Positions 12,461-62,483 are shown, counted from the first letter of the stretch. The stretch is 64,000 nt of DNA from an uncultured Actinomycetota bacterium (GCA_963781595.1 CAWAGG010000006.1:522201-586200), one strand, 5' to 3'. The notes: generated from the sequence alone by a model not told the origin. Numbers and translations are program-made.

Positions 12461-14011
12461 GTGCAAGACGACGGGAACGACCAGGGCAGCTCGTCGGCCG
12501 ACCAGCCGACCGCTCCGAACGATCCGACCGGTCCGATCGACCCGATCGCTCCGAGCGTTCCGACCGATCCGCACGCGACCCCCTTCCCCGGTCGCGTGTC
12601 GGAGCCGGTCGGGGACACCCTTTCCACCCAACAGCTCCCCATCGGAGGCGTGCCCCCGATGCCGCCCCCCATGCCGCCGCCCCCATCGGTGCGGTGGGAG
12701 CAAGAGGGTCCGCGCGCGCCAGAGCCGGGTCCGGCGCAGCCGCAACCGCAGGGCCCGGAGCCCCGTGATCCGGAGCCGCCGGCAGCGGTATGGGGCTCCT
12801 CGCAGGGATCCCAGTCGTGGGATCCGAGTCAGCAGGCCACGTGGCAGCCGCGGGCGACCCCCGTCGCGACGGAGCGGCCACGCCGCCGGGTGTGGCCCGT
12901 GCTCGTGGCCGTGGTGCTCGCTTCGGCGCTGATCGGCGGAGGGCTCGGCTACGGCCTGTCGAGGGGCGGCTCGAACGCCGCCGCGGACAAGGCGATCACG
13001 CTCGTCGAAGGGACGCAGGCGGCCCCCGCGTCGAACGCCGCGCAGATGGTCGCGCGCGTCCTGCCGTCCGTGGTCAACATCCGTGTGACCGTCCTGTCGA
13101 CCGATCCGCTCGGCGGCCAGACCAGCGGCCAGGCGGAAGGCTCCGGCGTCGTGCTGTCCAAGAACGGACTGATCGTGACGAACGCACATGTCGTGTCCGG
13201 CGCGACCAGCGTGAAGGTGGTCTTCACGGACGGTCACGCCTCGCTCGACGGCACGGTGCTCGGCGTCGACACCGTGCACGACCTCGCGGTCGTGAAGGTG
13301 GACGCGAACGACCTCGATCCGGTCACGATCGGCCACTCCAAGACGCTGAAGCTGGTCGATGACGTATACGCGATCGGCTTCCCGCTCGACCTCGGCCCGA
13401 CGGTGACCCGGGGCGTCATCTCCGGACTCAACCGGACGATCGACGTGAGCCGTCCGGACGGCACCTCCGAGCACCTCGAGGGCATGCTCCAGACGGACGC
13501 CGCGATCAATCCCGGGAACTCCGGCGGCGCATTGATCGACGGGGCCGGCCAGCTGGTCGGGATCAACACGGCCGGCGCCCAGGCGAGCCAGGCCGAGAAC
13601 GTCGGGTTCGCGATCGCGATCGACGGCGCGATCCCGATCGTCCGCTCGCTCGCCGAAGGGAACTCCCCGCCCTCGGGCGGCACCGGGACCGTCACCGACA
13701 CGGCATGGCTCGGTGTCTCGGTCGAACCCGTCGACAGTGACACCGTCGACGCCCGCTACGGCGTGCCCGCCGGGACGCGCGGCGCAGGGGTCGTCGAGGT
13801 CGTGGCCGGCGGACCGTCGGTTCAGGCCGGGATCAAGGTCGGAGACGTGATCGTGAGCGTCGGCGGTGAGTCCGTCACCTCGCTGTCCGAGCTCCACGCA
13901 GCGGTCGCGTCCCACAAGCCGGGCGAGCGGGTCGATGTGTCGCTGGTCTCGCCGGATGGAACGCGCACCGTCACGGTCACGCTCGGAACGCGTCCCGCGA
14001 ACCTCGGGTAG
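12461..14011 (+). CDS. HtrA/DegP-family trypsin-like serine protease with PDZ domain and Pro-rich N-terminal region
   Basis: GAGGAG RBS before GTG; catalytic triad context (TNAHVV, HDLAVVKV, GNSGGAL); C-terminal PDZ; TM segment after Pro-rich linker. Confidence 0.85.
   Translation: MQDDGNDQGSSSADQPTAPNDPTGPIDPIAPSVPTDPHATPFPGRVSEPVGDTLSTQQLPIGGVPPMPPPMPPPPSVRWEQEGPRAPEPGPAQPQPQGPEPRDPEPPAAVWGSSQGSQSWDPSQQATWQPRATPVATERPRRRVWPVLVAVVLASALIGGGLGYGLSRGGSNAAADKAITLVEGTQAAPASNAAQMVARVLPSVVNIRVTVLSTDPLGGQTSGQAEGSGVVLSKNGLIVTNAHVVSGATSVKVVFTDGHASLDGTVLGVDTVHDLAVVKVDANDLDPVTIGHSKTLKLVDDVYAIGFPLDLGPTVTRGVISGLNRTIDVSRPDGTSEHLEGMLQTDAAINPGNSGGALIDGAGQLVGINTAGAQASQAENVGFAIAIDGAIPIVRSLAEGNSPPSGGTGTVTDTAWLGVSVEPVDSDTVDARYGVPAGTRGAGVVEVVAGGPSVQAGIKVGDVIVSVGGESVTSLSELHAAVASHKPGERVDVSLVSPDGTRTVTVTLGTRPANLG
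12506..12580 (+). repeat. Imperfect 9-nt tandem repeat (CCGAYCGNT x about 8) encoding P-x-x/PxDP tripeptide repeats in HtrA N-terminus
   Basis: ccgaacgat ccgaccggt ccgatcgac ccgatcgct ccgagcgtt ccgaccgat ccgcacgcg. Confidence 0.6.
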
Positions 14012-14024
14012 GTCCGCGGGTCCT

Positions 14025-14065
14025 CGAGGGGCCGGGCCGGCCCCCCTTCTCGGCCCGGCCCCCTC
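14025..14065. terminator. GC-rich hairpin between convergent htrA-like and AKR genes (putative bidirectional intrinsic terminator, no U-tract)
   Basis: GAGGGGCCGGGCCGG-loop-CGGCCCGGCCCCCTC near-perfect inverted repeat. Confidence 0.45.
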
Positions 14066-14105
14066 TCCCCCTCCGACCGCGCCACTCGGGGCGCGATCGG
14101 ACGTT

Positions 14106-14912
14106 TCAGCCTTCGGCCAGCCGGCTCACGAGCGCTCGCTCGTCCGGACCGAACCAGGGCGGCACGCCGGCAGCGGCGTTCGCCCGAGCGTGCGCCGGGT
14201 CCCGGGTCGCGGGGATCGCGGCGTGGACCCGCGGGTCGGACAAGATCCACTTCAGCACGGCGCCGGTCCAATCGGTCACACCGAACGCCTCGAGGACGGT
14301 GAACGCCTCGGGACCCGGCCCAGGGAGCAGATCGCGTTCACCGAACGGCCGCATCGCGAGCACCCCGAGTCCGAGCTCGGCGGCGAGGGGAAGGATCCGA
14401 CGTTCGACGTCGCGCTCGAGCGGGTTGTACGGGATCTGGACCGCCTGGATCCGCCCGGTCCGCATCACCGCTTCGAGCTCGTCGAACGCTCCGGCGTTCC
14501 AATGCGTCGCGCCGATCGCTCCGATCCGGCCGTCCTCACGCTCACCTTCCATCCACGCGAGGTGATCCCGCCAGGACACGAGGTTGTGGATCTGTTCGAG
14601 ATCGACGCGTCCGCCGAACCATCCCAGCTGATCGGCGAACTGCCGCCGACCGACTTCGACGGACGGGTCCCAGATCTTCGTCGCGACGACCGCCTGGTCG
14701 CGGCGCGGGCCCAGCGCGCGGCCCAGGACGCGTTCGGCGCGACCGTACATCGGCGACGAATCGACCAGCCGCGTCCCGGCGTCGAACGCCGCGGCGACGA
14801 CCTCGTCGGCGACCTCCTGCTGGCGCGGCGGGACATCGAACACCATCCACGTGCCGAGGCCCACCACGGGGACCTCCAGCCCGCTCGACGACCCGAACGC
14901 CCGCCGCTCCAT
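14106..14912 (-). CDS. Aldo/keto reductase
   Basis: MERRAFGSSSGLEVPVVGLGTWMVFD start typical of AKR; upstream ORF extension is Arg/Gly-rich junk. Confidence 0.75.
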   Translation of the reverse strand: MERRAFGSSSGLEVPVVGLGTWMVFDVPPRQQEVADEVVAAAFDAGTRLVDSSPMYGRAERVLGRALGPRRDQAVVATKIWDPSVEVGRRQFADQLGWFGGRVDLEQIHNLVSWRDHLAWMEGEREDGRIGAIGATHWNAGAFDELEAVMRTGRIQAVQIPYNPLERDVERRILPLAAELGLGVLAMRPFGERDLLPGPGPEAFTVLEAFGVTDWTGAVLKWILSDPRVHAAIPATRDPAHARANAAAGVPPWFGPDERALVSRLAEG

Positions 14913-52247: not shown

Positions 52248-53186
52248 TCAGTCGACGGGCCCTGCGCCGTCGTCGGTCCGTGGCTCCGACGTGCGGGACA
52301 GTCGTTCCCGAGCGATGTCCACGGCCACGGGGTTGCGGTCGACCAACAGGAACCGGCGCCCGAGGCGCTTCGCCACCACGCCCGTCGTTCCGCTCCCGGC
52401 GAAGAAGTCCAGAACGAGGTCCCCGGGCCGGCTCGAGGCGGCGACGATGCGCGTGAGCAGCCGCTCGGGCTTCTGTGTCGGATAGCCCGTGCGCTCGGGA
52501 CCGTTCGTCGGCACGATCGTCATCCACCACACGTCCGTGGGGAGCTTTCCCCGAGAGACCTTCTCCGGACCCACCAGGCCGGGCGCCATGTACGGGATCC
52601 GGTCGATCGCGTCCCGATCGAACGTCCACGCGTCCCCGCGCGCGTACCACAGGATCGTGTCGTGCTTGCGCGGCCACCGGTCGCGCGGCCTCCCCCCGTA
52701 GTCGTAGGCCCACACGATCTCGTTCAGGAAGCGCTCGGGTCCGAACACGTCGTCCATGATCAGCCGCGCGTGGTGCGCCGCCCGGAAGTCGAGGTGGACG
52801 TAGATCGACCCACGTGGGTCCAGCACGCGATGCGCTTCGGTCAGATGCGCCGCGAGGAACGCGAGGTACGCGTCGAGCGGCATGTCGTCGCGGTACGCGT
52901 GATCGGAGACCACTTCGAACCGGTACGTCCTGCCGCCGAACCCGCGGCGCTCACGCTCCCCCGCGCCCGTGCGGATCGACGACAGCCTGCGCACCTGTCC
53001 CGTACCGAACGGCGGATCGACGTAGATCAGCTGCACGGAACCATCCGGGAGCGTCCCGAGCACGTCCAACGCCGTGCCCAGGATCACGCCTTCGGGCACG
53101 AGCGCCTGGCGTCGCGCGGTCACGGGACGTTCGGCCGTCGGCTCGCCTCCTCTGGAATCGGTGGGCGCTTCTCTATGCTCGACCAT
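52248..53186 (-). CDS. DNA methyltransferase, beta-class (N6-adenine or N4-cytosine), orphan
   Basis: Motif IV IYVDPPFG precedes motif I LDFFAGSGTTGVVA (beta-class order). Confidence 0.8.
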   Translation of the reverse strand: MVEHREAPTDSRGGEPTAERPVTARRQALVPEGVILGTALDVLGTLPDGSVQLIYVDPPFGTGQVRRLSSIRTGAGERERRGFGGRTYRFEVVSDHAYRDDMPLDAYLAFLAAHLTEAHRVLDPRGSIYVHLDFRAAHHARLIMDDVFGPERFLNEIVWAYDYGGRPRDRWPRKHDTILWYARGDAWTFDRDAIDRIPYMAPGLVGPEKVSRGKLPTDVWWMTIVPTNGPERTGYPTQKPERLLTRIVAASSRPGDLVLDFFAGSGTTGVVAKRLGRRFLLVDRNPVAVDIARERLSRTSEPRTDDGAGPVD

Positions 53187-53187
53187 G

Positions 53188-53589
53188 ATGACGACGCACG
53201 GCACCGAGCGCTTCGAGTTCGACTTCGATCCCCGCTACCGTCCGCTGCTCGCCGGCCTGACGGTCACGCCGGGCCGGGCCTGGGTCGAACTCGGCGACGA
53301 GCTCGTCGTCCGGTTCGGGCGATGGGAGCTGCGGACGCCCGTGTCGAACATCGCCGACGTGTGCATCACCGGGCCATACATGGCGGCCCGGGCGATCGGT
53401 CTTCGGCTGTCCCTCACGGACCACGGGGTCACGTTCGGGACGACCGCGCGAGGCGGTGCATGCGCGACGTTCCACCAGCCCGTTCCCGGCGTCTCGTGGC
53501 TCGGCCTCGTGCGGCACCCGGGCGCGACGGTCACGGTGAAGGACCCGGAGGCGTTCGCATCGGCGGTTCGCGCCAGGATCGAACGCTAG
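53188..53589 (+). CDS. Hypothetical protein, divergent and start-overlapping with MTase
   Basis: CATGATG: ATG 53185/53188 on + strand, ATG of MTase on - strand at 53184-53186. Confidence 0.4.
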   Translation: MTTHGTERFEFDFDPRYRPLLAGLTVTPGRAWVELGDELVVRFGRWELRTPVSNIADVCITGPYMAARAIGLRLSLTDHGVTFGTTARGGACATFHQPVPGVSWLGLVRHPGATVTVKDPEAFASAVRARIER

Positions 53590-53630: not shown

Positions 53631-54050
53631 TCACCCTGCCTGACTGAGTTCGACCAGATGTCCGTCGGGGTCGCGCAGGAAGCAGCGCGTCTCCCAGGGG
53701 CTCGCGAGCGGCGGGGTGAGGAACCCCGCGCCGCGCTGCCTGAGCGTCTCGTAGGCCTCCTGGCAGTCGGGAACCCGGATCGTGAACGCCACGCTGACAG
53801 TGTCCGGATCGGCCGGAGGCGCGAACGTCACGGTCGGCTTGTCGTCGGTCGGCGGTCCACCGGTCACGAGCAACAGCCAGGTCCCCAGGAACCGCAACAC
53901 GATCGACGTGCCGCCGTACTCGCGGTAGATCTCCGCCCCCAGCACGTCCCGGTAGAAGTCGCGCGAGCGGTCGAGTTCGCTCACGACCAGGATCGTCGTG
54001 ATCTCCATGCCGTCGACGGGGAACGTACCGCTCATGGCGTTCGGCATCAT
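53631..54050 (-). CDS. VOC/glyoxalase-bleomycin resistance family protein
   Basis: MEITTILVVSELDRSRDFYRDVLGA...DPDGHLVEL. Confidence 0.75.
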   Translation of the reverse strand: MMPNAMSGTFPVDGMEITTILVVSELDRSRDFYRDVLGAEIYREYGGTSIVLRFLGTWLLLVTGGPPTDDKPTVTFAPPADPDTVSVAFTIRVPDCQEAYETLRQRGAGFLTPPLASPWETRCFLRDPDGHLVELSQAG

Positions 54051-54091: not shown

Positions 54092-55027
54092 GTGACGGGC
54101 GCGGAGGCCGACGGGATCGGGGACGGCGGGGGCCTGCGGGCGAGCCCGCTCGGCGTGCTGGCGATCGCCGTCCCGGTCGTCGGCTGGTCGCTCGCGAACC
54201 TGATCGTGAAGATCGTGCCGGTCCCGGCGCTGACGTTCGCGTTCTGGCGCCTGTGGCTGGGCGCCGCGGTGATGCTGACGGTCGCGGCGCTCGCGCGCCG
54301 GCCGCTCACCCGCGACGTCCTGCGAGCCGGGATCCCGGGCGGGATCCTGTTCGGGCTGAACATCGTGTTCTTCTTCGTCGCGCTGAAGGAGACGGCGGTC
54401 GCCGACGTCCTGGTGATCGCCGCGCTCCAACCCGCGCTGACCGTGCTGGTCGCCGGCCGGCTCTTCGGCGAACACGTGACGCGCCGCGAGCTGTGGTTCG
54501 TGTTCGCCTCCGTCGCCGGCGTGGTCGTGTTCGTGATCGGCTCGAGCGGGACGCCGGCCTGGAGCCTCCGCGGGGATCTGTTCGCGGTGCTCTCGCTCGC
54601 CGTGTTCTTCGTGTACTTCCTGTGGTCGAAGCGCGTCCGGTCCGACGTCGCGGCGATCGAGTACATGGCGACGGTCACGCTCGTCGCCGCGGTCGTCGTG
54701 ACGCCACTGGCGATCGTCGGGCCGGGCATCTCGGGGATGCGCGGGGCCGACTGGTGGTGGCTCGTCCTGTTCGTGGCGATCGCTCAGGGCGGGCATCTCC
54801 TGCTCGCGTGGGCGCACCCGTACGTGGACGCGACCGTCTCGTCGTTGCTGCTCCTCGGCGAGCCCCCGATCTCCGCGATCGCGGCGTTCGTGGTGCTCGG
54901 CGAGACCGTCACATGGCTCGGCGTGGCCGGTGGGCTGGCCGCGCTGGCGTGCCTGGTCGTCGTCGTCCGGAGCGCGACCGCGGCGGGCACGACCCTCCCT
55001 GGAGCCACCGAGGCCGCATCCCCCTGA
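54092..55027 (+). CDS. DMT-superfamily (EamA-like) transporter
   Basis: 10 TM, duplicated EamA halves. Confidence 0.75.
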   Translation: MTGAEADGIGDGGGLRASPLGVLAIAVPVVGWSLANLIVKIVPVPALTFAFWRLWLGAAVMLTVAALARRPLTRDVLRAGIPGGILFGLNIVFFFVALKETAVADVLVIAALQPALTVLVAGRLFGEHVTRRELWFVFASVAGVVVFVIGSSGTPAWSLRGDLFAVLSLAVFFVYFLWSKRVRSDVAAIEYMATVTLVAAVVVTPLAIVGPGISGMRGADWWWLVLFVAIAQGGHLLLAWAHPYVDATVSSLLLLGEPPISAIAAFVVLGETVTWLGVAGGLAALACLVVVVRSATAAGTTLPGATEAASP

Positions 55028-55128: not shown

Positions 55129-56220
55129 ATGGAACCGAACCGACCCCTCGCCTATCGCGTGCTGGTCGTCGAGGACGACGGCGTCTCCGCCGCGTTCCTC
55201 CGGGGCGTCCTCGAGAAAGGCGGACGCTTCGCAGTCACGCACACCGGAGACGCCGAACGAGCCGGCATGTTCCTCGCGACGCAGGACTGGGACCTGCTGA
55301 TAGTCGACGTCCGGCTGCCCGGCATGACCGGGCTCGAACTGCTCCGGATCCTCCCCCCCGAACAGCAGCCCCCGACGATCGTGATCACGGGAGCCCCGAC
55401 GCTCGACGTCGCCGTCGACGCCCTGCGCGCCGAGGCCGACGAGTTCCTCGCGAAGCCGGTCGAGCCCGACGTGCTGCTCGCGAAGGCCGCGGCCCTCGCT
55501 GGCCGGCCCCGGCGGCGGCCCGAGGCCGTCCGCGTGCTCGCGATCGGCGCGCACCCGGACGACGTGGAGATCGGGTGCGCCGGGAGCCTGCTGGGGCATC
55601 GTGCGGCCGGCGACGCGGTCGCGATCCTGACGATGACGCAGGGCGAGAGCGGTGGCGACCGCGACTGGCGGGCGCGGGAGTCGGAACGCTCGGCCACGTA
55701 CCTGGGCGCCCAGCTGTTCCTGCGGGACCTGGAGGACACCGGGATCCCCGCGGGGAACCCGACCGTCGGCATGATCGAGGAGGTCGTTGCGGAATTCGGG
55801 CCGAACGTCGTCTACACGCACAGCATCAACGACCTGCACCAGGACCACCGCGCGGTCCATCGCGCCGCGATGGTCGCCGTCCGCGCCGTCCCGCACGTCT
55901 ACTGCTTCCAGAGCCCGTCTGCGACGGTCGAGTTCCGGCCGACGCGGTTCATCCCGATCGACGGGCACCTCGACGGGAAGCTCGAGGCGATCCGGGCGTT
56001 CGCGTCGCAGACCGCCAGCCGCGACTACCTCGACGAGGAGCTGATCCGTTCGACGGCACGGTACTGGGGCCGCTTCGGGGGCGGACGGTACGCCGAACCG
56101 CTCGAGGTCGTTCGCGACCGCGCCGCCGCCGACCCGCTCCGGTTGCCGGCCACGCGCAGCGCCGCCGAGGCCGCAGCCCGGGCCGGCGCGGCGACCGGGG
56201 GCGACCATGCCGCAGCCTGA
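55129..56220 (+). CDS. Response-regulator receiver (REC) domain fused to PIG-L/LmbE-family N-acetylglucosaminyl deacetylase
   Basis: REC: VVEDD, LLIVDVRLPGMTG, ITG, LAKPV; LmbE: LAIGAHPDDVEIGCAGSL and HQDHRAVH. Confidence 0.75.
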   Translation: MEPNRPLAYRVLVVEDDGVSAAFLRGVLEKGGRFAVTHTGDAERAGMFLATQDWDLLIVDVRLPGMTGLELLRILPPEQQPPTIVITGAPTLDVAVDALRAEADEFLAKPVEPDVLLAKAAALAGRPRRRPEAVRVLAIGAHPDDVEIGCAGSLLGHRAAGDAVAILTMTQGESGGDRDWRARESERSATYLGAQLFLRDLEDTGIPAGNPTVGMIEEVVAEFGPNVVYTHSINDLHQDHRAVHRAAMVAVRAVPHVYCFQSPSATVEFRPTRFIPIDGHLDGKLEAIRAFASQTASRDYLDEELIRSTARYWGRFGGGRYAEPLEVVRDRAAADPLRLPATRSAAEAAARAGAATGGDHAAA

Positions 56221-57301
56221 CGACGCGACGACCGACCGGCGCTCGGATCCCCGTGACCGGGTCCCGCGGGTCCTGGTGACCGGGGCGGGTGGTCCCGCCG
56301 CGATCGCGTTCCTGCGCGCGGTGGGCGACGGGAGCGCCGACCTGTTCGCGGCGGACATCGACCCCTATGCGGCCGGGCTCTACCTCGTCCCGGAGGCGCG
56401 GCGCGTGCTGCTCCCCAGGGGCGACGACTCTGGCTTCGCAGGCGGGCTCCTCGCCGTGTGCGCCGACGAACGGATCGACCTGGTCGTGCCCACGGTGGAC
56501 GTTGAGCTGCTGCCGATCGCCCGGGTCCGCCGCCGGCTGGAGGTTGCCGGGACCCGCGCGGTCCTTGCTTCGATCGAGACGCTCGTCGTGTCGCTCGACA
56601 AGTGGCGCCTCGTGAGCGTCTGCCGGGACGCCGTCGCGGTGCCGGCGACGACGCTGATGGACGGACGGTCGAACGTGCCGTTCGAACCGCCGTTCGTCGT
56701 GAAGCCGCGGGTGGGCAGCGGGTCGCGCGGCGTCCGGCTCGTGGAGGACCCGGCCGAGCTGGCGAGCCTCCCGGGCGACGGGTCGATGATCGCGCAGGCG
56801 TACCTGCCCGGCGAGGAGTATTCGCTGGACGTACTGGCGAGGTCCGACGGGCACGTGGTTACCGTCGTGCCGCGCGTCCGGTTGAAGGTGGACTCGGGCG
56901 TGTCCGTCGCGGGTCGAACCGTGCACGACCCGGAGCTGGAGACGTTCGGCATGCGCGTCGCGGCGCGCATCAACCTGACGACCGTCGCGAACGTGCAGTG
57001 CCGTCGCGACGCGTACGGCCGCCCGGTCCTGCTGGAGGTGAACCCGCGGTTCTCCGGCGCGATGCCGCTCACGGTCGCGAGCGGCGTGAACATGCCAGCG
57101 CTGGCGCTCGCCGATGCGCTCGGCCTGCCCGTGCCCGACACGATCGCCTTCCGCGAGACGGCCATGGTCCGGTTCCTGGAGGACCGGTTCCCGCCGGTCG
57201 AGGAGATGGACGCCCTGGCACGCGGGCGCGGCGGGCTGCAGCGTCTGGGGACGGACGCCGCGGCGACGATGGAGTCGGCGATGGCCGTGGGCGAACGATG
57301 A
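56207..57301 (+). CDS. ATP-grasp domain protein (carboxylate-amine ligase-like)
   Basis: FVVKPRVGSGSRGVRLVED...AQAYLPGEEYSLDVL...LEVNPRFSGAMP. Confidence 0.7.
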   Translation: MPQPDDATTDRRSDPRDRVPRVLVTGAGGPAAIAFLRAVGDGSADLFAADIDPYAAGLYLVPEARRVLLPRGDDSGFAGGLLAVCADERIDLVVPTVDVELLPIARVRRRLEVAGTRAVLASIETLVVSLDKWRLVSVCRDAVAVPATTLMDGRSNVPFEPPFVVKPRVGSGSRGVRLVEDPAELASLPGDGSMIAQAYLPGEEYSLDVLARSDGHVVTVVPRVRLKVDSGVSVAGRTVHDPELETFGMRVAARINLTTVANVQCRRDAYGRPVLLEVNPRFSGAMPLTVASGVNMPALALADALGLPVPDTIAFRETAMVRFLEDRFPPVEEMDALARGRGGLQRLGTDAAATMESAMAVGER

Positions 57302-58047
57302 ACGCGAACGGCGACGTCCTTCGCCAGGACTGGCACGTCCACTCGACGTTCTCCGACGGCCGCTCCCGGCCCTCCGAGAACCTCACGCGCGCCGCCGAGG
57401 TCGGCCTCTTCGAGGTCTGCTTCGTCGACCACGTCCGCCGGTACACGACGTGGGTGCCGGACTTCGTCGAGGAGGTCGAACGGCTGCGGCGCGAGACCTC
57501 GGTGAAGGTGCACTGTTCGGTCGAGGCGAAGATCCTGGACCGTGCGGGAACGCTGGACCTGCCCCGCGCCGTCGCGGGACTCGACGGGCTCGACCTCGTC
57601 CACGTGGCCGATCACCGGTTCCCGATGGGCTTCGGACCGGCCGACCCCGACGAGGTGCGTCGGGCGCTGGCCCGCGGGACCGCGCAGGCCTCCGACCTGA
57701 TCGAGTGCCTGGTCGAAGCGACCGAACGCGCCCTGGCCCGCGTCCCGCGCGCGCTGCTGGCGCATCTGTTCAGCATCCTGCCGAAGGTCGGCCTGGACGA
57801 ATCCGAGGTTCCCGACGACGCGCTGTCATCGCTGGCCGCCGCCGCGGCGAGCGCAGGCGCACTGGTCGAGGTCAACGAGAAGTGGCGTTGTCCCTCCCCG
57901 CGGACGCTCCGAGCGTTCCGCGACGCGGGGGTCGGGATCGTCGCGGGCAGCGACGCCCACGAGCCGAACGCGATCGGCAGCTACGGCGGCTACGTGGCTC
58001 GCACGCTCGCGGACCTGGCTCCCGCACCCGCGGGGCGGGAGGCGTGA
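57298..58047 (+). CDS. PHP-domain metal-dependent phosphoesterase
   Basis: DWHVHSTFSDG (HxH), ...VDHV..., GSDAHEP motifs; ATGA overlap with previous gene. Confidence 0.7.
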   Translation: MNANGDVLRQDWHVHSTFSDGRSRPSENLTRAAEVGLFEVCFVDHVRRYTTWVPDFVEEVERLRRETSVKVHCSVEAKILDRAGTLDLPRAVAGLDGLDLVHVADHRFPMGFGPADPDEVRRALARGTAQASDLIECLVEATERALARVPRALLAHLFSILPKVGLDESEVPDDALSSLAAAAASAGALVEVNEKWRCPSPRTLRAFRDAGVGIVAGSDAHEPNAIGSYGGYVARTLADLAPAPAGREA

Positions 58048-58051
58048 GGCG

Positions 58052-59566
58052 GTGCTGCATGCCGCGGCGCGAGCGGGCGTCTGGATCCTGATCGGCTTCG
58101 TCCTGCTTGGCGCCGTCCCGATGCTGATCGGCGCGTACGAGTTCGCCCTGATCGGCCTGCATCGCTGGCGGAACCACTTCGATCGGGTCGAACCCTTCCT
58201 GCCACGCGTCGCGGTCCTGATCCCGGCGTGGAACGAGGTCTCCGTGATCGGCGCGTCGATCGACCGGATGATGGCGATGGACTACCCGGCGAGCCGCCTG
58301 CGCGTCTACGTCGTCGACGACGCGAGCACCGACGACACGCAGTTCGTCGTTGCCGCGGCGGCGTCCTGGTACCCGGGCCGCGTGATCCACCTCCGGCGAG
58401 CGCACGGCGGCGCGGGCAAGGCGCACACGCTGAACCACGGCCTGCGCGTCCTGCTCGACGACGACTGGATGGAAGCGCTGCTGATCACGGACGCGGATGT
58501 GCAGTTCGAACCCGACGCCCTGCGGAAGATGACGCGGCACCTCACCGACCCGGGTGTCGGCGCCGTCACGGCGTTCATCAAGGAGGGCAGCCGTCCGGGC
58601 AACTCGATGACCCGGTTCATCGGCTACGAATACGTCACCGCGCAGGCCGCGGCCCGGCGGTCGCAGAACGTGCTGGGCGCGCAGGCGTGCCTGGCCGGCG
58701 GCGCGCAGCTGCACACGAGGGCGAACCTGGAGGCGATCGGCGGCCGGATCGACACGACCACGCTCGCCGAGGATACGGTCACGACGTTCCTCACCCAGCT
58801 CGCGGGGCGGCGGGTGATCTTCGACGGTGACGCGGTCGCGTGGGCCGAGGAGCCCGGCTCGATCCGCGGCCTGTGGGCACAGCGCGTCCGGTGGGCCCGG
58901 GGCAACGTCCAGGTGACCAGGCGGTTCCGGCACGTGTGGTTCCGGCCGCGCTGGTTCGGCCCGCGGCCCGCGCACCGGCTCGGCGGCGTGAGCTTCGGCG
59001 TGATCTGGTTCAGCCTCTTCCTGCAGCCGCTCCTGATGCTGCTGGCGTCGGCGAGCCTCGTGGCGCTGTACCTGATCGACGCGCCCGCGTCGTGGCGCGT
59101 GTTCCATCCGCTGTGGATCTGCAACGTGGTGACGTTCGCGTTCATCACGGCGTTCGCGCTGTCGCTCGATCCGAGCACCGCCCGGCGAACCTGGAAGCAG
59201 GCGATCACGTTCCCAGGGCTGGTCTCGCTCGCGATCCTCGTCTACGCGGCGTTCCCGGGGGCGGTCCGATGGGGCGCCGACGGCCTGATGCGCCTCACGG
59301 GCGTGCACCCGGGACCGGTTGCGGCGCACGCGCTGGTGCTCTTCGTCTACGCCTGGCTCGGCGCGTCGATGTTCGTCTCGTACCTCGCGAAGCGTCTCGA
59401 GGGCCGGCGTGGCGGACGGTTCTGGAGTCCGCTGTTCCTGTACGTCGGCGGCTACGGGCCGCTGCTGTGCTCCGTGACGCTCGCGGCGTATTGGCGCGAG
59501 CTGCGGCGGGCCGAGATGCGGTGGGAGAAGACCGAGAAGGAGGGGAAGATGGCGGTAGCGGCGTGA
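58052..59566 (+). CDS. Processive family-2 glycosyltransferase (PgaC/IcaA/NodC/HAS-like synthase), polytopic membrane protein
   Basis: VVDDASTDDT, TDADVQFEPD, LAED, QRVRWARG (QxxRW); 2 N-terminal and about 4-5 C-terminal TM. Confidence 0.8.
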   Translation: MLHAAARAGVWILIGFVLLGAVPMLIGAYEFALIGLHRWRNHFDRVEPFLPRVAVLIPAWNEVSVIGASIDRMMAMDYPASRLRVYVVDDASTDDTQFVVAAAASWYPGRVIHLRRAHGGAGKAHTLNHGLRVLLDDDWMEALLITDADVQFEPDALRKMTRHLTDPGVGAVTAFIKEGSRPGNSMTRFIGYEYVTAQAAARRSQNVLGAQACLAGGAQLHTRANLEAIGGRIDTTTLAEDTVTTFLTQLAGRRVIFDGDAVAWAEEPGSIRGLWAQRVRWARGNVQVTRRFRHVWFRPRWFGPRPAHRLGGVSFGVIWFSLFLQPLLMLLASASLVALYLIDAPASWRVFHPLWICNVVTFAFITAFALSLDPSTARRTWKQAITFPGLVSLAILVYAAFPGAVRWGADGLMRLTGVHPGPVAAHALVLFVYAWLGASMFVSYLAKRLEGRRGGRFWSPLFLYVGGYGPLLCSVTLAAYWRELRRAEMRWEKTEKEGKMAVAA

Positions 59567-59568
59567 GC

Positions 59569-59712
59569 ATGAACGGGTCGGCGAACGATCGTCGCGCCTT
59601 CGAGGAGGACCTGGTGAAGGACCTCCGGTACGAACGGTCCCTCCCGTGGCGGGAGCTCCTGGCGCTCGGGGTGGTCGTCGTGGTGGTCGTGCTGCACCGG
59701 CTGTTCGGGTGA
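59569..59712 (+). CDS. Small single-TM peptide (47 aa) overlapping GT2 stop
   Basis: MNGSANDRRAFEEDLVKDLRYERSLPWRELLALGVVVVVVVLHRLFG; start overlaps TGA of synthase. Confidence 0.35.
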   Translation: MNGSANDRRAFEEDLVKDLRYERSLPWRELLALGVVVVVVVLHRLFG

Positions 59713-61084: not shown

Positions 61085-61277
61085 ACCCCCGGTGACCGCG
61101 GGGGGAGCGCCAGTGGCGCTCGCCCCTCGAGGGCCAGGATGAGATCCGCGCACCCCCGCGGGCCGGGACGCTTAGACCGGCTACAGGGAAACGCGCGTGA
61201 GAGCGCCAGTCAGTGAGCAACCGGCCCGGCGTCCCGACACCGCAGGGTGCCCCATCGTCGCAGGGAGGAGGGATGAG
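61085..61277 (+). ncRNA. Candidate IS110 bridge RNA in element left end
   Basis: Non-coding, multiple hairpins (e.g. GAGCGCC-agt-GGCGCTC at about 61109-61125; CCCCCGgtgaccGCGGGGG); position upstream of recombinase matches IS110-subgroup architecture. Confidence 0.3.
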
Positions 61278-62483
61278 GTGAAGCAGCTCTGGTGCGGGCT
61301 CGACTGGGCCAGCAGGACGCACGCCGTGTGCGTCGTCGACGACGCGGGTGAGATCCGGGCCCGCTTCGAGGTCCCCGACACCGGCAAGTCCTTCGCCGGC
61401 CTGGTGAAGCGCCTGGTGGAGCTGGAGGTCGCTGGCGTGGCGATCGAACGTCCCGACGGTCCCCTGGTGGAGGCCCTGCTCGAGGCCGGGCTCACGGTGC
61501 ACATGATCCCGCCGTCGATGCTGAAAGCGGTCCGGGCCCGCTACGGCGCGGCCGGGGCCAAGTCCGATCCCGGAGACGCGTTCGTCCTCGCCGACCTGCT
61601 CCGGACCGATCATCACCGGCTCGCGCCGCTCACGACCGACAGCCCGGCCACGAAGGGCCTGCGGGCGCTGACCCGGACCCGTAAGGATCTGGTAGCGGCC
61701 AGGGTGGCCCTGACCAACCAGCTCCTGGCGCAGCTGGGGGTGTGCTTCCCCGGCGCGGTGGGCCTGTTCGGCGACCTGCACTCGGCCGTCGCGGCGGCGT
61801 TCCTGCACCGCTACCCCACGGCGGCCAGGGCCGCCTCGCTCACCGAAGGCCGGCTGGCCGCGTTCCTGCGGCGGATCCACTACTGCGGGCGCACCCCCGT
61901 CACCGAGCTCCTCCGGCGGATCAAGGAGGCACCCCCGGCCGGCCTCGGTGCCGAGGAGGACGGGTCCAGGGCCGCCTGCGTCCTGGCGCTGGTGGAGGCG
62001 ATCCGGGCCTGTGAGGGCCGGGCCCGCGAGCTCGAGGCCGAGATCGTCGAGCGTCTGGAGATCCATCCCGACGCCCACGTGTTCACGAGCCTGCCGCGGG
62101 CCGGCCGCGGCGTCCGGGCCGCGACGCTGCTCGCCGAGATCGGCGACGTGAGGCAGCGGTTCCCCGACGCCGAGAGCTTGATGGCCCTCGCCGGCGCCGC
62201 TCCGGTCACCAGGGCCTCCGGCAAGTACCGGGTCGTCGCCTTCCGGTGGGCCTGCGACAAGAAGCTCCGCGCGGCCGTCGTGGAGTTCGCCGACGACTCC
62301 CGTCGCGCCTCCCCATGGGCCCGCGGGATCTACGAGCGCTCGATGGCGAGGGGCCATACGCATCCGCACGCGGTGCGCATCCTCGCCCGGGCCTGGCTCC
62401 GGGTGATCTGGCGTTGCTGGCAGGACGGCGCCGCGTACGACATCACCAAGCATCGAGGGGCGGTGGTGCCCATCGCCGCTTGA
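61278..62483 (+). CDS. IS110-family transposase/recombinase (DEDD RuvC-like N-domain + Tnp C-domain)
   Basis: GLDWASRTHAVCVVDDAGE; ...AIERPDG...; C-terminal GxxPxxxxSGxxx serine region; GGGAGGAGGG RBS before GTG. Confidence 0.85.
   Translation: MKQLWCGLDWASRTHAVCVVDDAGEIRARFEVPDTGKSFAGLVKRLVELEVAGVAIERPDGPLVEALLEAGLTVHMIPPSMLKAVRARYGAAGAKSDPGDAFVLADLLRTDHHRLAPLTTDSPATKGLRALTRTRKDLVAARVALTNQLLAQLGVCFPGAVGLFGDLHSAVAAAFLHRYPTAARAASLTEGRLAAFLRRIHYCGRTPVTELLRRIKEAPPAGLGAEEDGSRAACVLALVEAIRACEGRARELEAEIVERLEIHPDAHVFTSLPRAGRGVRAATLLAEIGDVRQRFPDAESLMALAGAAPVTRASGKYRVVAFRWACDKKLRAAVVEFADDSRRASPWARGIYERSMARGHTHPHAVRILARAWLRVIWRCWQDGAAYDITKHRGAVVPIAA

Follow-up and report, generated by a model that had tools for sequence, protein, structure and literature searches.

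A conserved cassette of a receiver-fused LmbE deacetylase and a family 2 glycosyltransferase as candidate core of a synthase-dependent exopolysaccharide system

Background

Why is a response-regulator receiver fused to a sugar de-N-acetylase, and why is the fusion encoded together with a glycosyltransferase that resembles exopolysaccharide synthases? The question is raised by five genes at positions 55129-59712 of a 64,000-nucleotide stretch of DNA from an uncultured Actinomycetota bacterium (GCA_963781595.1 CAWAGG010000006.1:522201-586200), called the window in the following. To our knowledge, the well-studied synthase-dependent biofilm polysaccharides cellulose, poly-N-acetylglucosamine (PNAG), alginate and Pel are all activated by cyclic di-GMP (c-di-GMP) and modified outside the cytoplasm. 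We read the five-gene cassette, with somewhat more belief than doubt, as the monoderm core of a widespread synthase-dependent exopolysaccharide system that would be controlled by a phosphorelay rather than by c-di-GMP and would include cytoplasmic tailoring. An initial annotation of the window had pointed to the cassette without recognising the combination as a described system. Likewise, neither a receiver-LmbE protein nor this gene set was found described in the full-text literature searched, which does not cover most subscription journals, so that an earlier description is possible. In this reading the cassette would be an apparently undescribed form of synthase-dependent glycan production in which the control input and the cytoplasmic enzymology are new.

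Results and discussion

Gene organization and conservation

Five intact, co-oriented open reading frames (ORFs) occupy 55129-59712 on the plus strand. They encode REC-LmbE, a response-regulator receiver joined to a PIG-L/LmbE zinc de-N-acetylase (55129-56220, 363 aa), an ATP-grasp carboxylate-amine ligase of the PylC/carbamoyl-phosphate synthase (CPS)-like (PRK12767) type (56207-57301, 364 aa), a histidinol-phosphatase-like phosphoesterase of the PHP family (57298-58047, 249 aa), a polytopic family 2 glycosyltransferase (GT2) of the predicted processive-synthase class (58052-59566, 504 aa) and a single-pass membrane peptide (59563-59712), recognised as an ORF with a helix and probably a synthase subunit. 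Consecutive genes are joined by a 14-nt overlap, an ATGA overlap, a 4-nt gap and a GTGA overlap, and by these junctions the five genes are predicted to be one translationally coupled unit. The coupled operon described initially was re-derived ORF by ORF and overlap by overlap, and the gene calls of the public record give all five products exactly. A real gene follows GT2; the 47 aa annotated first result from an alternative ATG at 59569, whereas the public call starts at GTG and yields 49 aa. The Pfam matches of the four enzymes all exceed the curated cutoffs and, together with the confirmed catalytic motifs, bear out the initial assignment to REC, LmbE, ATP-grasp, PHP and GT2. None of the five proteins reaches the cutoff of any NCBIfam model, and the peptide has neither a Pfam nor an NCBIfam match.

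Related loci were screened with the window proteins as probes; the screen comprised the 80 best loci and further loci from contig look-ups, and synteny was counted, after removal of duplicates, in the 61 loci flanked by 6 kb or more on each side. A search for a gene entry identical to the REC-LmbE protein of the window gave none, and relatives were used instead. The ATP-grasp gene, adjoining REC-LmbE, was kept in 54 of the 61 loci, a phosphatase of either type in 51 (PHP in 46) and GT2 in 47. All four enzyme genes were present together in 46/61 loci, and 38/61 had the exact order and strand of the window; conservation of the gene order in related genomes, on which the first reading had been staked beforehand, was thus found. 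Cassettes occurred in six or more phyla, including Actinomycetota, Acidobacteriota, Gemmatimonadota, Myxococcota and Proteobacteria. Actinobacterial carriers were Leifsonia, Microbacterium, Cellulomonas, Blastococcus, Streptomyces, Streptosporangiaceae, Solirubrobacterales (including the cultured Capillimicrobium parvum) and Acidimicrobiia, and a rearranged gene order was present in Vicinamibacteria, Blastocatellia, Gemmatimonadaceae, Polyangiaceae, Rhodospirillales, Burkholderiales, Marinicella and Legionella. Within genera the distribution was patchy. The two-domain architecture of REC-LmbE had more than 2,100 database homologues, with relatives in at least 538 species-level genomes in a scan of one genome per species, and each of the three components searched (REC-LmbE, GT2 and ATP-grasp) was represented by more than 2,000 database proteins. 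Preservation of the same gene set despite rearrangement across phyla is strong evidence for one functional unit. A fortuitous adjacency of genes with separate functions would agree with the neighbouring EamA gene, which is indeed unrelated, but it conflicts with the overlapping start and stop codons, with the joint occurrence of the four enzyme genes across phyla, rearranged orders included, and with the gene fusion and the analogous gene replacement presented below; synteny effectively refutes it, and we give it a negligible probability.

A second class of REC-LmbE loci (7/61) has the kinase described in the next section, but no ATP-grasp, phosphatase or GT2 gene. In the examples L024, L065, L071 and L078 the kinase is located approximately 2.0-2.4 kb downstream of REC-LmbE. 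In these loci the fusion protein may serve another purpose.

The receiver-fused deacetylase and its kinase

REC-LmbE matched PF00072 with 75.8 bits (cutoff 30.2) and PF02585 with 84.3 bits (cutoff 28.2). The best curated family for the LmbE domain was BshB1 (TIGR04001) with 84.2 bits, below the equivalog cutoff of 182.5. The nearest characterised relatives of the domain are diacetylchitobiose deacetylase and the bacillithiol enzyme BshB1, which both act on N-acetylglucosamine (GlcNAc) glycosides. In alignment A1 the receiver residues D16, D17, D60, T87 and K109 were invariant, as were the LmbE residues H142, D144, D145, E147, H237, D239 and H240, the latter being kept in 83 of 86 relatives. 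The acidic pocket and phospho-Asp that had been noticed in the window protein are therefore present, and so are the catalytic His and Asp residues, the absence of which would have counted against a functional deacetylase.

A PAS-HisKA-HATPase histidine kinase was encoded beside the cassette in 42/61 loci, usually just downstream and sometimes preceded by a single-domain receiver. Two loci, in a Marinicella metagenome-assembled genome (MAG; L046, 1673-2221, E = 1e-32) and in a Blastocatellia MAG (L064, 6477-7025, E = 3e-52), had H-NOX haem-NO-binding proteins (PF07700) and hybrid histidine kinases directly beside the cassette, which suggests a nitric-oxide (NO) input in these lineages. The REC acidic pocket was degenerate in Legionella, alpha-proteobacteria, Streptomyces sp. 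cg35 and Occultella, all without an adjacent kinase; some kinase-less loci, including the window, retain a canonical receiver. The near-invariance of the LmbE residues together with the decay of the receiver in some kinase-less lineages identifies the enzyme as the core and the receiver as a lineage-specific regulatory addition.

The classical receiver-fused hydrolase is CheB, which opposes a constitutive modifying enzyme. REC-LmbE shares with CheB the N-terminal fusion of the receiver to a hydrolase, an arrangement that implies phospho-control of catalysis, whereas catalytic fold and substrate are unrelated. By analogy, the activity of the deacetylase would depend on receiver phosphorylation.

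The ATP-grasp ligase and the phosphatase

The ATP-grasp protein matched PF15632 (ATPgrasp_Ter, 103 bits), PF02655 (ATP-grasp_3, 57.5 bits) and PF21360 (PylC-like_N), and the NCBIfam models of the PRK12767 'carbamoyl-phosphate-synthase-like' group below their cutoffs. Its sequence matches in the PDB were 2pn1 and PylC. The AlphaFold2 (AF2) model (predicted local distance difference test, pLDDT, 87.6) retrieved in Foldseek first the uncharacterised structure 2pn1 (template modelling score, TM, 0.73/0.85), followed by biotin carboxylase/CPS, the L-amino-acid ligases RizA and YwfE, and PylC. The fold search did not discriminate between substrates. The model places the enzyme in the class of small-molecule carboxylate-amine ligases.

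The PHP protein matched PF02811 with 35.1 bits (cutoff 26.4). The metal-binding motifs HxH (H13, H15) and DxH (D218, H220) were read from the translation, NCBIfam PRK08392 and HisJ-family models matched below their cutoffs, and the histidinol phosphatases 2yxo and 4gc3 were the matches in the PDB. In Proteobacteria a gene of the histidine phosphatase superfamily (His_Phos_1) takes the position of PHP after the ATP-grasp gene, a non-homologous replacement. The replacing proteins have approximately 205-213 aa (L076, 11746-12387; L077, 9293-9925; L075, 12005-12616; L073, 3818-4441). The analogous replacement indicates that the system includes a phosphomonoesterase step, irrespective of the fold that provides it. 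A role as SixA-like phospho-histidine phosphatase was considered for the phosphatase of the cassette and down-weighted, as CobC-type small-molecule phosphatases (alpha-ribazole phosphatase) match the replacing protein better, with 1e-13 to 1e-15 against 1e-4 to 1e-5 for SixA.

The glycosyltransferase and the small membrane peptide

The glycosyltransferase matched the Pfam families PF13641 (Glyco_tranf_2_3), PF00535 (Glycos_transf_2), PF13506 (Glyco_transf_21) and PF13632 (Glyco_trans_2_3). The best curated family was PgaC_IcaA (TIGR03937) with 106.5 bits, below the equivalog cutoff of 422.3, and the second best was NodC with 71.5 bits (E = 6.5e-20), below the cutoff of 550; HpnI, HpnB and the lipid-acting Glyco_transf_21 family were matched as well. 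The motifs D89-D90, D147xD149, E240-D241 and Q277xxR280W281 were invariant in alignment A2. In the AF2 model (pLDDT 87.3; predicted TM score, pTM, 0.86) two N-terminal helices precede a GT-A domain, and approximately 6-8 helices follow it. Foldseek listed PcManGT, a 'minimal cellulose-synthase-like' enzyme, at the top, then the hyaluronan synthases (HAS) of Chlorella virus and Xenopus, BcsA, chitin synthases and plant CesA, over approximately 500 aligned columns. Best curated family and fold assign the enzyme to the membrane-integrated processive-synthase class, not to the dolichol-P or GtrB type. GT2 was also the most conserved gene of the cassette, with 60-72 % identity among the listed database homologues and 44-71 % across related loci.

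In nearly all loci containing GT2, across phyla, an ORF for a small peptide starts 3 nt before the GT2 stop. The peptides range from 41 to 98 aa and follow a common pattern, a polar segment F-x-x-[DE]-...-E-[RK]-x-[LI] with a nearly invariant Glu and then one hydrophobic helix. In 3/3 Legionella loci GT2 and peptide form one reading frame, with the peptide at the C-terminal end of the protein (L059, 4705-6324; L060, 4688-6307; L077, 3351-5219). This fusion marks the peptide as a synthase subunit, a role that is probable from sequence for the unfused peptides as well.

Directly before the peptide gene, or before the fusion point, the GT2 proteins carry a C-terminal motif W-x-K-T-x-K-x-G-K (residues 491-499, at approximately 59522-59548 in the window). 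In the Actinomycetota alignment A2 the residues W491, K493, T494, K496 and G498 were invariant, and K499 was present in at least 90 % of the sequences. The motif was also visible in the GT2 C-termini of Legionella and other diderms, with the last Lys not always kept.

A conserved Lys-rich end of the synthase and a conserved Glu in its partner would fit a reversible amide switch, in which the ATP-grasp enzyme adds a group to a primer, a chain end or a site on GT2 or the peptide and phospho-activated REC-LmbE removes it, an on/off control like that of CheR and CheB. Besides the precedent of CheB, it could draw on the LmbE family itself, in which Mca cleaves the same glucosamine (GlcN)-acyl amide that the ligase MshC makes, and on the ligase and the receiver-amidase being the most tightly linked gene pair. 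We know of no LmbE enzyme with a protein substrate, the ATP-grasp protein is structurally closest to small-molecule ligases and not to peptide-modifying ones, and the phosphatase would have no role; we consider such a switch very improbable.

Export partners in diderm bacteria

In 14 diderm loci a tetratricopeptide repeat (TPR) protein is encoded beside GT2. Its TPR part matches the models of PgaA, BcsC and PrsT, while a C-terminal domain of approximately 230 aa, ending in Trp or Phe, matches no family and is probably an outer-membrane barrel. The TPR protein of Legionella (854-1034 aa) directly follows the GT2-peptide fusion, and its C-terminal domain ends in YWG, YWA or YWQ. At 12480-14612 of a Polyangiaceae MAG (L067), a BcsB-like protein (PF03170, E = 1e-15) stands in a row with the genes of the TPR-barrel protein and PHP. 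By their sequences, the TPR protein, and in one locus the BcsB-like protein, are likely export components. The layout of the diderm cassettes is that of the outer-membrane export of PNAG, cellulose and Pel.

These partners bear on a glycolipid or small-glycoside pathway of the mycothiol or HpnI/HpnK kind. GT2 would there add a single GlcNAc to a lipid or small acceptor that bears a phosphate. Dephosphorylation by the phosphatase, de-N-acetylation by LmbE and ligation of an amino acid by the ATP-grasp enzyme would come next. The four enzyme types parallel MshA, MshA2, MshB and MshC step by step, and a GT2 (HpnI) and an LmbE enzyme (HpnK) make glucosaminyl hopanoid. Further agreement comes from the GT2 matches to HpnI, HpnB and Glyco_transf_21, from the non-processive PcManGT as top match in the PDB and from the resemblance of both phosphatase types to small-molecule phosphomonoesterases. 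However, the highest curated score of GT2 is with PgaC/IcaA, its alignment with HAS and BcsA covers the full length, and it has a membrane partner of its own, which in Legionella belongs to the same protein. In a thiol or lipid pathway of the housekeeping kind one would not usually expect TPR-barrel and BcsB-like partners at the outer membrane or control by a kinase, and the patchy distribution within genera fits it poorly. We regard a pathway of this kind as decidedly unlikely.

Proposed mechanism

In the reading as a synthase-dependent exopolysaccharide system, GT2 and the small peptide would form a membrane-embedded synthase and translocon. The product would most likely be a glycan containing beta-linked N-acetylhexosamine (HexNAc), probably GlcNAc; we infer this sugar from the similarity to PgaC, NodC and chitin synthase and from the co-occurrence of a HexNAc-type deacetylase. 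REC-gated LmbE, the ATP-grasp enzyme and the phosphomonoesterase would act at the cytoplasmic face; their target could be the donor of the sugar, a primer, the end of the chain on the cytoplasmic side or a short product after its release. LmbE would remove the N-acetyl group and thereby free the amine, to which the ATP-grasp enzyme would then ligate a carboxylate in an ATP-dependent reaction giving an amide. A phosphate, probably present on one of the two ligation partners, would be removed afterwards by the phosphatase. An adjacent histidine kinase, PAS- or H-NOX-linked and present in most genomes, would phosphorylate the receiver, a signal thus controlling the deacetylase step, and the phosphorelay would stand in for the c-di-GMP control of known synthase systems. 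In diderms, the TPR protein with its C-terminal barrel would carry the product across the outer membrane. Three parts of this scheme had been overlooked before, namely the conserved and analogously replaced phosphatase, the peptide as synthase subunit and the outer-membrane component of diderms.

Several observations weigh against this proposal. The function proposed for the cassette is a matter of genomic inference. All matches of GT2 to named families are far below the curated cutoffs and do not fix the donor sugar, and PcManGT, its top match in structure and sequence, is a non-processive mannosyltransferase. The PgaC-like processive synthase of the initial annotation is upheld by the best curated family and by the fold shared with HAS, BcsA and chitin synthase, but the bit score and the properties of PcManGT detract from it. 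The phosphorelay control postulated at the same time agrees with the kinases found beside many cassettes, yet no kinase homologue was detected by tblastn anywhere in the 64-kb window, a kinase elsewhere in the genome being possible; at this locus the kinase may be gone, or a rearrangement may have moved it away. The cassette of the cultured C. parvum lacks both peptide and kinase. Loci of Leifsonia keep REC-LmbE, ATP-grasp, PHP and the peptide, but are without GT2, and in the loci of Legionella rowbothamii and Marinicella a phosphatase was not detectable. Such variants warn that parts of the cassette can be uncoupled. The call of the outer-membrane barrel relies only on the domain size, the missing family match and the C-terminal aromatic residues. 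Finally, the synthase systems known to us modify their polymers outside the cytoplasm, and the three cytoplasmic enzymes may serve something other than tailoring.

In the cassette variants L015 (12650-15209, Leifsonia sp. Root227), L018 and L029, a single-domain receiver and the kinase are present besides REC-LmbE, ATP-grasp, PHP and the peptide, and no GT2 gene lies between PHP and the peptide.

Topology is a problem for the chemistry proposed initially, mycothiol-like de-N-acetylation and N-acylation of a synthase product. The required enzyme types are encoded, but they are cytoplasmic and the product would be exported. Since synthase products are threaded out during synthesis, the most likely targets of the cytoplasmic enzymes would be the donor, a primer or the chain end that is still in the cytoplasm. 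A Nod-factor-like pathway would solve the topological problem, as NodB and NodA are also cytoplasmic. GT2 would make a short, cytoplasm-accessible chito-oligosaccharide, LmbE in the role of NodB would deacetylate its non-reducing end, and the ATP-grasp enzyme in the role of NodA would re-acylate the amine with an amino acid or another acid; the exported oligosaccharide would serve as a signal or at the cell surface. NodC ranks second among the curated families of GT2, the characterised proteins nearest to the LmbE domain are deacetylases of GlcNAc glycosides, and the LmbE and ATP-grasp genes are almost always adjacent. On the other side stand the lack of a NodIJ-like ABC exporter in the cassette, the resemblance of GT2 in fold and helix count to the channel-forming HAS and BcsA, the diderm TPR-barrel and BcsB-like partners that are typical of polymer export, and a phosphatase whose role is left unexplained. 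On balance we think this pathway unlikely.

The exopolysaccharide reading can be taken further. The cassette could be the first exopolysaccharide system of the synthase-dependent type in which His-Asp phosphotransfer to an enzymatic response regulator is the direct gate, and in some lineages H-NOX would add NO sensing. In the cytoplasm, receiver-controlled LmbE and the ATP-grasp enzyme would replace the N-acetyl group on a hexosamine by a different acyl group, and many soil Actinomycetota and some Legionella would produce an N-acylated polyglucosamine-type polymer new to science. We put forward this extended version tentatively and doubt that it holds in full.

If the proposal is true, an exopolysaccharide system is wired to a two-component phosphorelay via an enzyme-bearing response regulator and combined with cytoplasmic tailoring or precursor chemistry. 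It would give a function to the large receiver-LmbE protein family and could explain GlcNAc-type surface polymers in organisms without pga or ica loci. The cassette is abundant in soil Actinomycetota metagenomes and occurs in culturable genera, and is thus directly testable.

Genomic surroundings

An EamA/DMT transporter gene (54092-55027, plus strand; PF00892, 89.9 bits) is located 101 nt upstream of the cassette on the same strand. The initial annotation had noted it as a neighbour on this strand, but it is not part of the conserved unit: none of 85 related loci had a tblastn match with E below 1e-5, and EamA was rejected as a member of the system. In loci L001 and L086 the uncharacterised upstream genes were mutually unrelated and not conserved. 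The other neighbours in the window are unrelated to the cassette as well (dCTP deaminase on the opposite strand, IS110 transposase, cyclase, DNA methylase and glyoxalase-family protein). Past the peptide gene, where most related loci have the kinase, the window has the convergent gene of the dCTP deaminase family (PF06559, PF22569; 59750-61153 on the minus strand), which begins 34 nt beyond the peptide stop. An IS110-family transposase (61197-62483) comes next. Between the DNA methylase gene (52251-53204, minus strand) and the glyoxalase-family gene (53634-54050, minus strand) lies an ORF of 171 aa (53074-53589, plus strand) with coding-like G+C content at third codon positions and no Pfam match. 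A scan for promoters and terminators revealed nothing above shuffled expectation; such a scan is uninformative for an actinobacterium with a G+C content of approximately 72 %, as in this window.

Comparison with known systems

A precedent for cytoplasmic tailoring of a polysaccharide is the capsule amidation of Campylobacter jejuni, for which the action of the ATP-grasp amidoligase Cj1438C and then of the dedicated phosphatase Cj1435 on the growing polysaccharide in the cytoplasm has been established experimentally (PMC11800397, PMC11800379). The cassette shares the pair of an ATP-grasp ligase and a dedicated phosphatase. However, the ligase of C. jejuni is TupA-like and that of the cassette PylC/CPS-like, the phosphatase is of the HAD type instead of PHP or His_Phos_1, the capsule is made via an ABC-transporter pathway, and deacetylase and receiver are absent there.

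With the mycothiol (MshA/A2/B/C) and bacillithiol (BshA/B/C) pathways the cassette has in common a glycosyltransferase, a phosphatase, an LmbE deacetylase, with BshB1 as best LmbE match, and an ATP-dependent ligase. It differs by a membrane GT2 in place of a soluble glycosyltransferase of family 4 (GT4), an ATP-grasp enzyme in place of MshC or BshC, the fusion of LmbE to a receiver and the presence of membrane and outer-membrane partners. The Nod pathway follows the same logic, with a GT2 oligomer synthase (NodC), a cytoplasmic de-N-acetylase (NodB) and N-acylation of the freed amine (NodA). Yet the deacetylase of the cassette is LmbE and not of carbohydrate esterase family 4 (CE4), ATP-grasp takes the place of NodA, a NodIJ exporter is absent, and the similarity to NodC is far below the cutoff; Pfam detected no CE4 or NodA domain in the cassette proteins. 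The cassette therefore is not a mycothiol, bacillithiol or Nod pathway, since in each comparison the glycosyltransferase, the ligase or the deacetylase is of the wrong family.

Further synthase-dependent systems are the cellulose (Bcs) system, HAS and NfrB/NfrA of E. coli. The fold class of the synthase is common to them and the cassette; diderm cassettes also have a TPR partner with a probable outer-membrane barrel and, in one lineage, a BcsB-like partner. Unlike these, the cassette has no PilZ or MshEN module for c-di-GMP, and its cytoplasmic tailoring or precursor enzymes come from other families. The greatest likeness is to PgaABCD of E. coli and IcaADBC of staphylococci. Common to them and the cassette are a polytopic GT2 that has the motifs D, DxD and QxxRW and a GT-A domain flanked by membrane helices on either side, a small membrane protein whose gene comes right after that of the synthase, like PgaD and IcaD, and a de-N-acetylation step; diderm cassettes add a TPR protein with a probable barrel like PgaA, of which only the TPR part matches the PgaA and BcsC models. 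In contrast to PgaD and IcaD, the partner in the cassette is a single-helix peptide without detectable homology to them and thus an analogue. The deacetylase is the cytoplasmic REC-LmbE and not an extracytoplasmic CE4 enzyme such as PgaB or IcaB, and neither Pfam nor the comparison of loci revealed a CE4 gene in the cassette. A ligase and a phosphatase are added, and control lies with a histidine kinase and a receiver instead of c-di-GMP, no c-di-GMP-binding domain being detected by Pfam in the cassette proteins. With a GT2 far below the equivalog cutoff, no CE4 enzyme, no c-di-GMP module and a partner that is not a homologue of PgaD or IcaD, the cassette lies outside the Pga/Ica group, which is nevertheless the synthase-dependent type that it resembles most.

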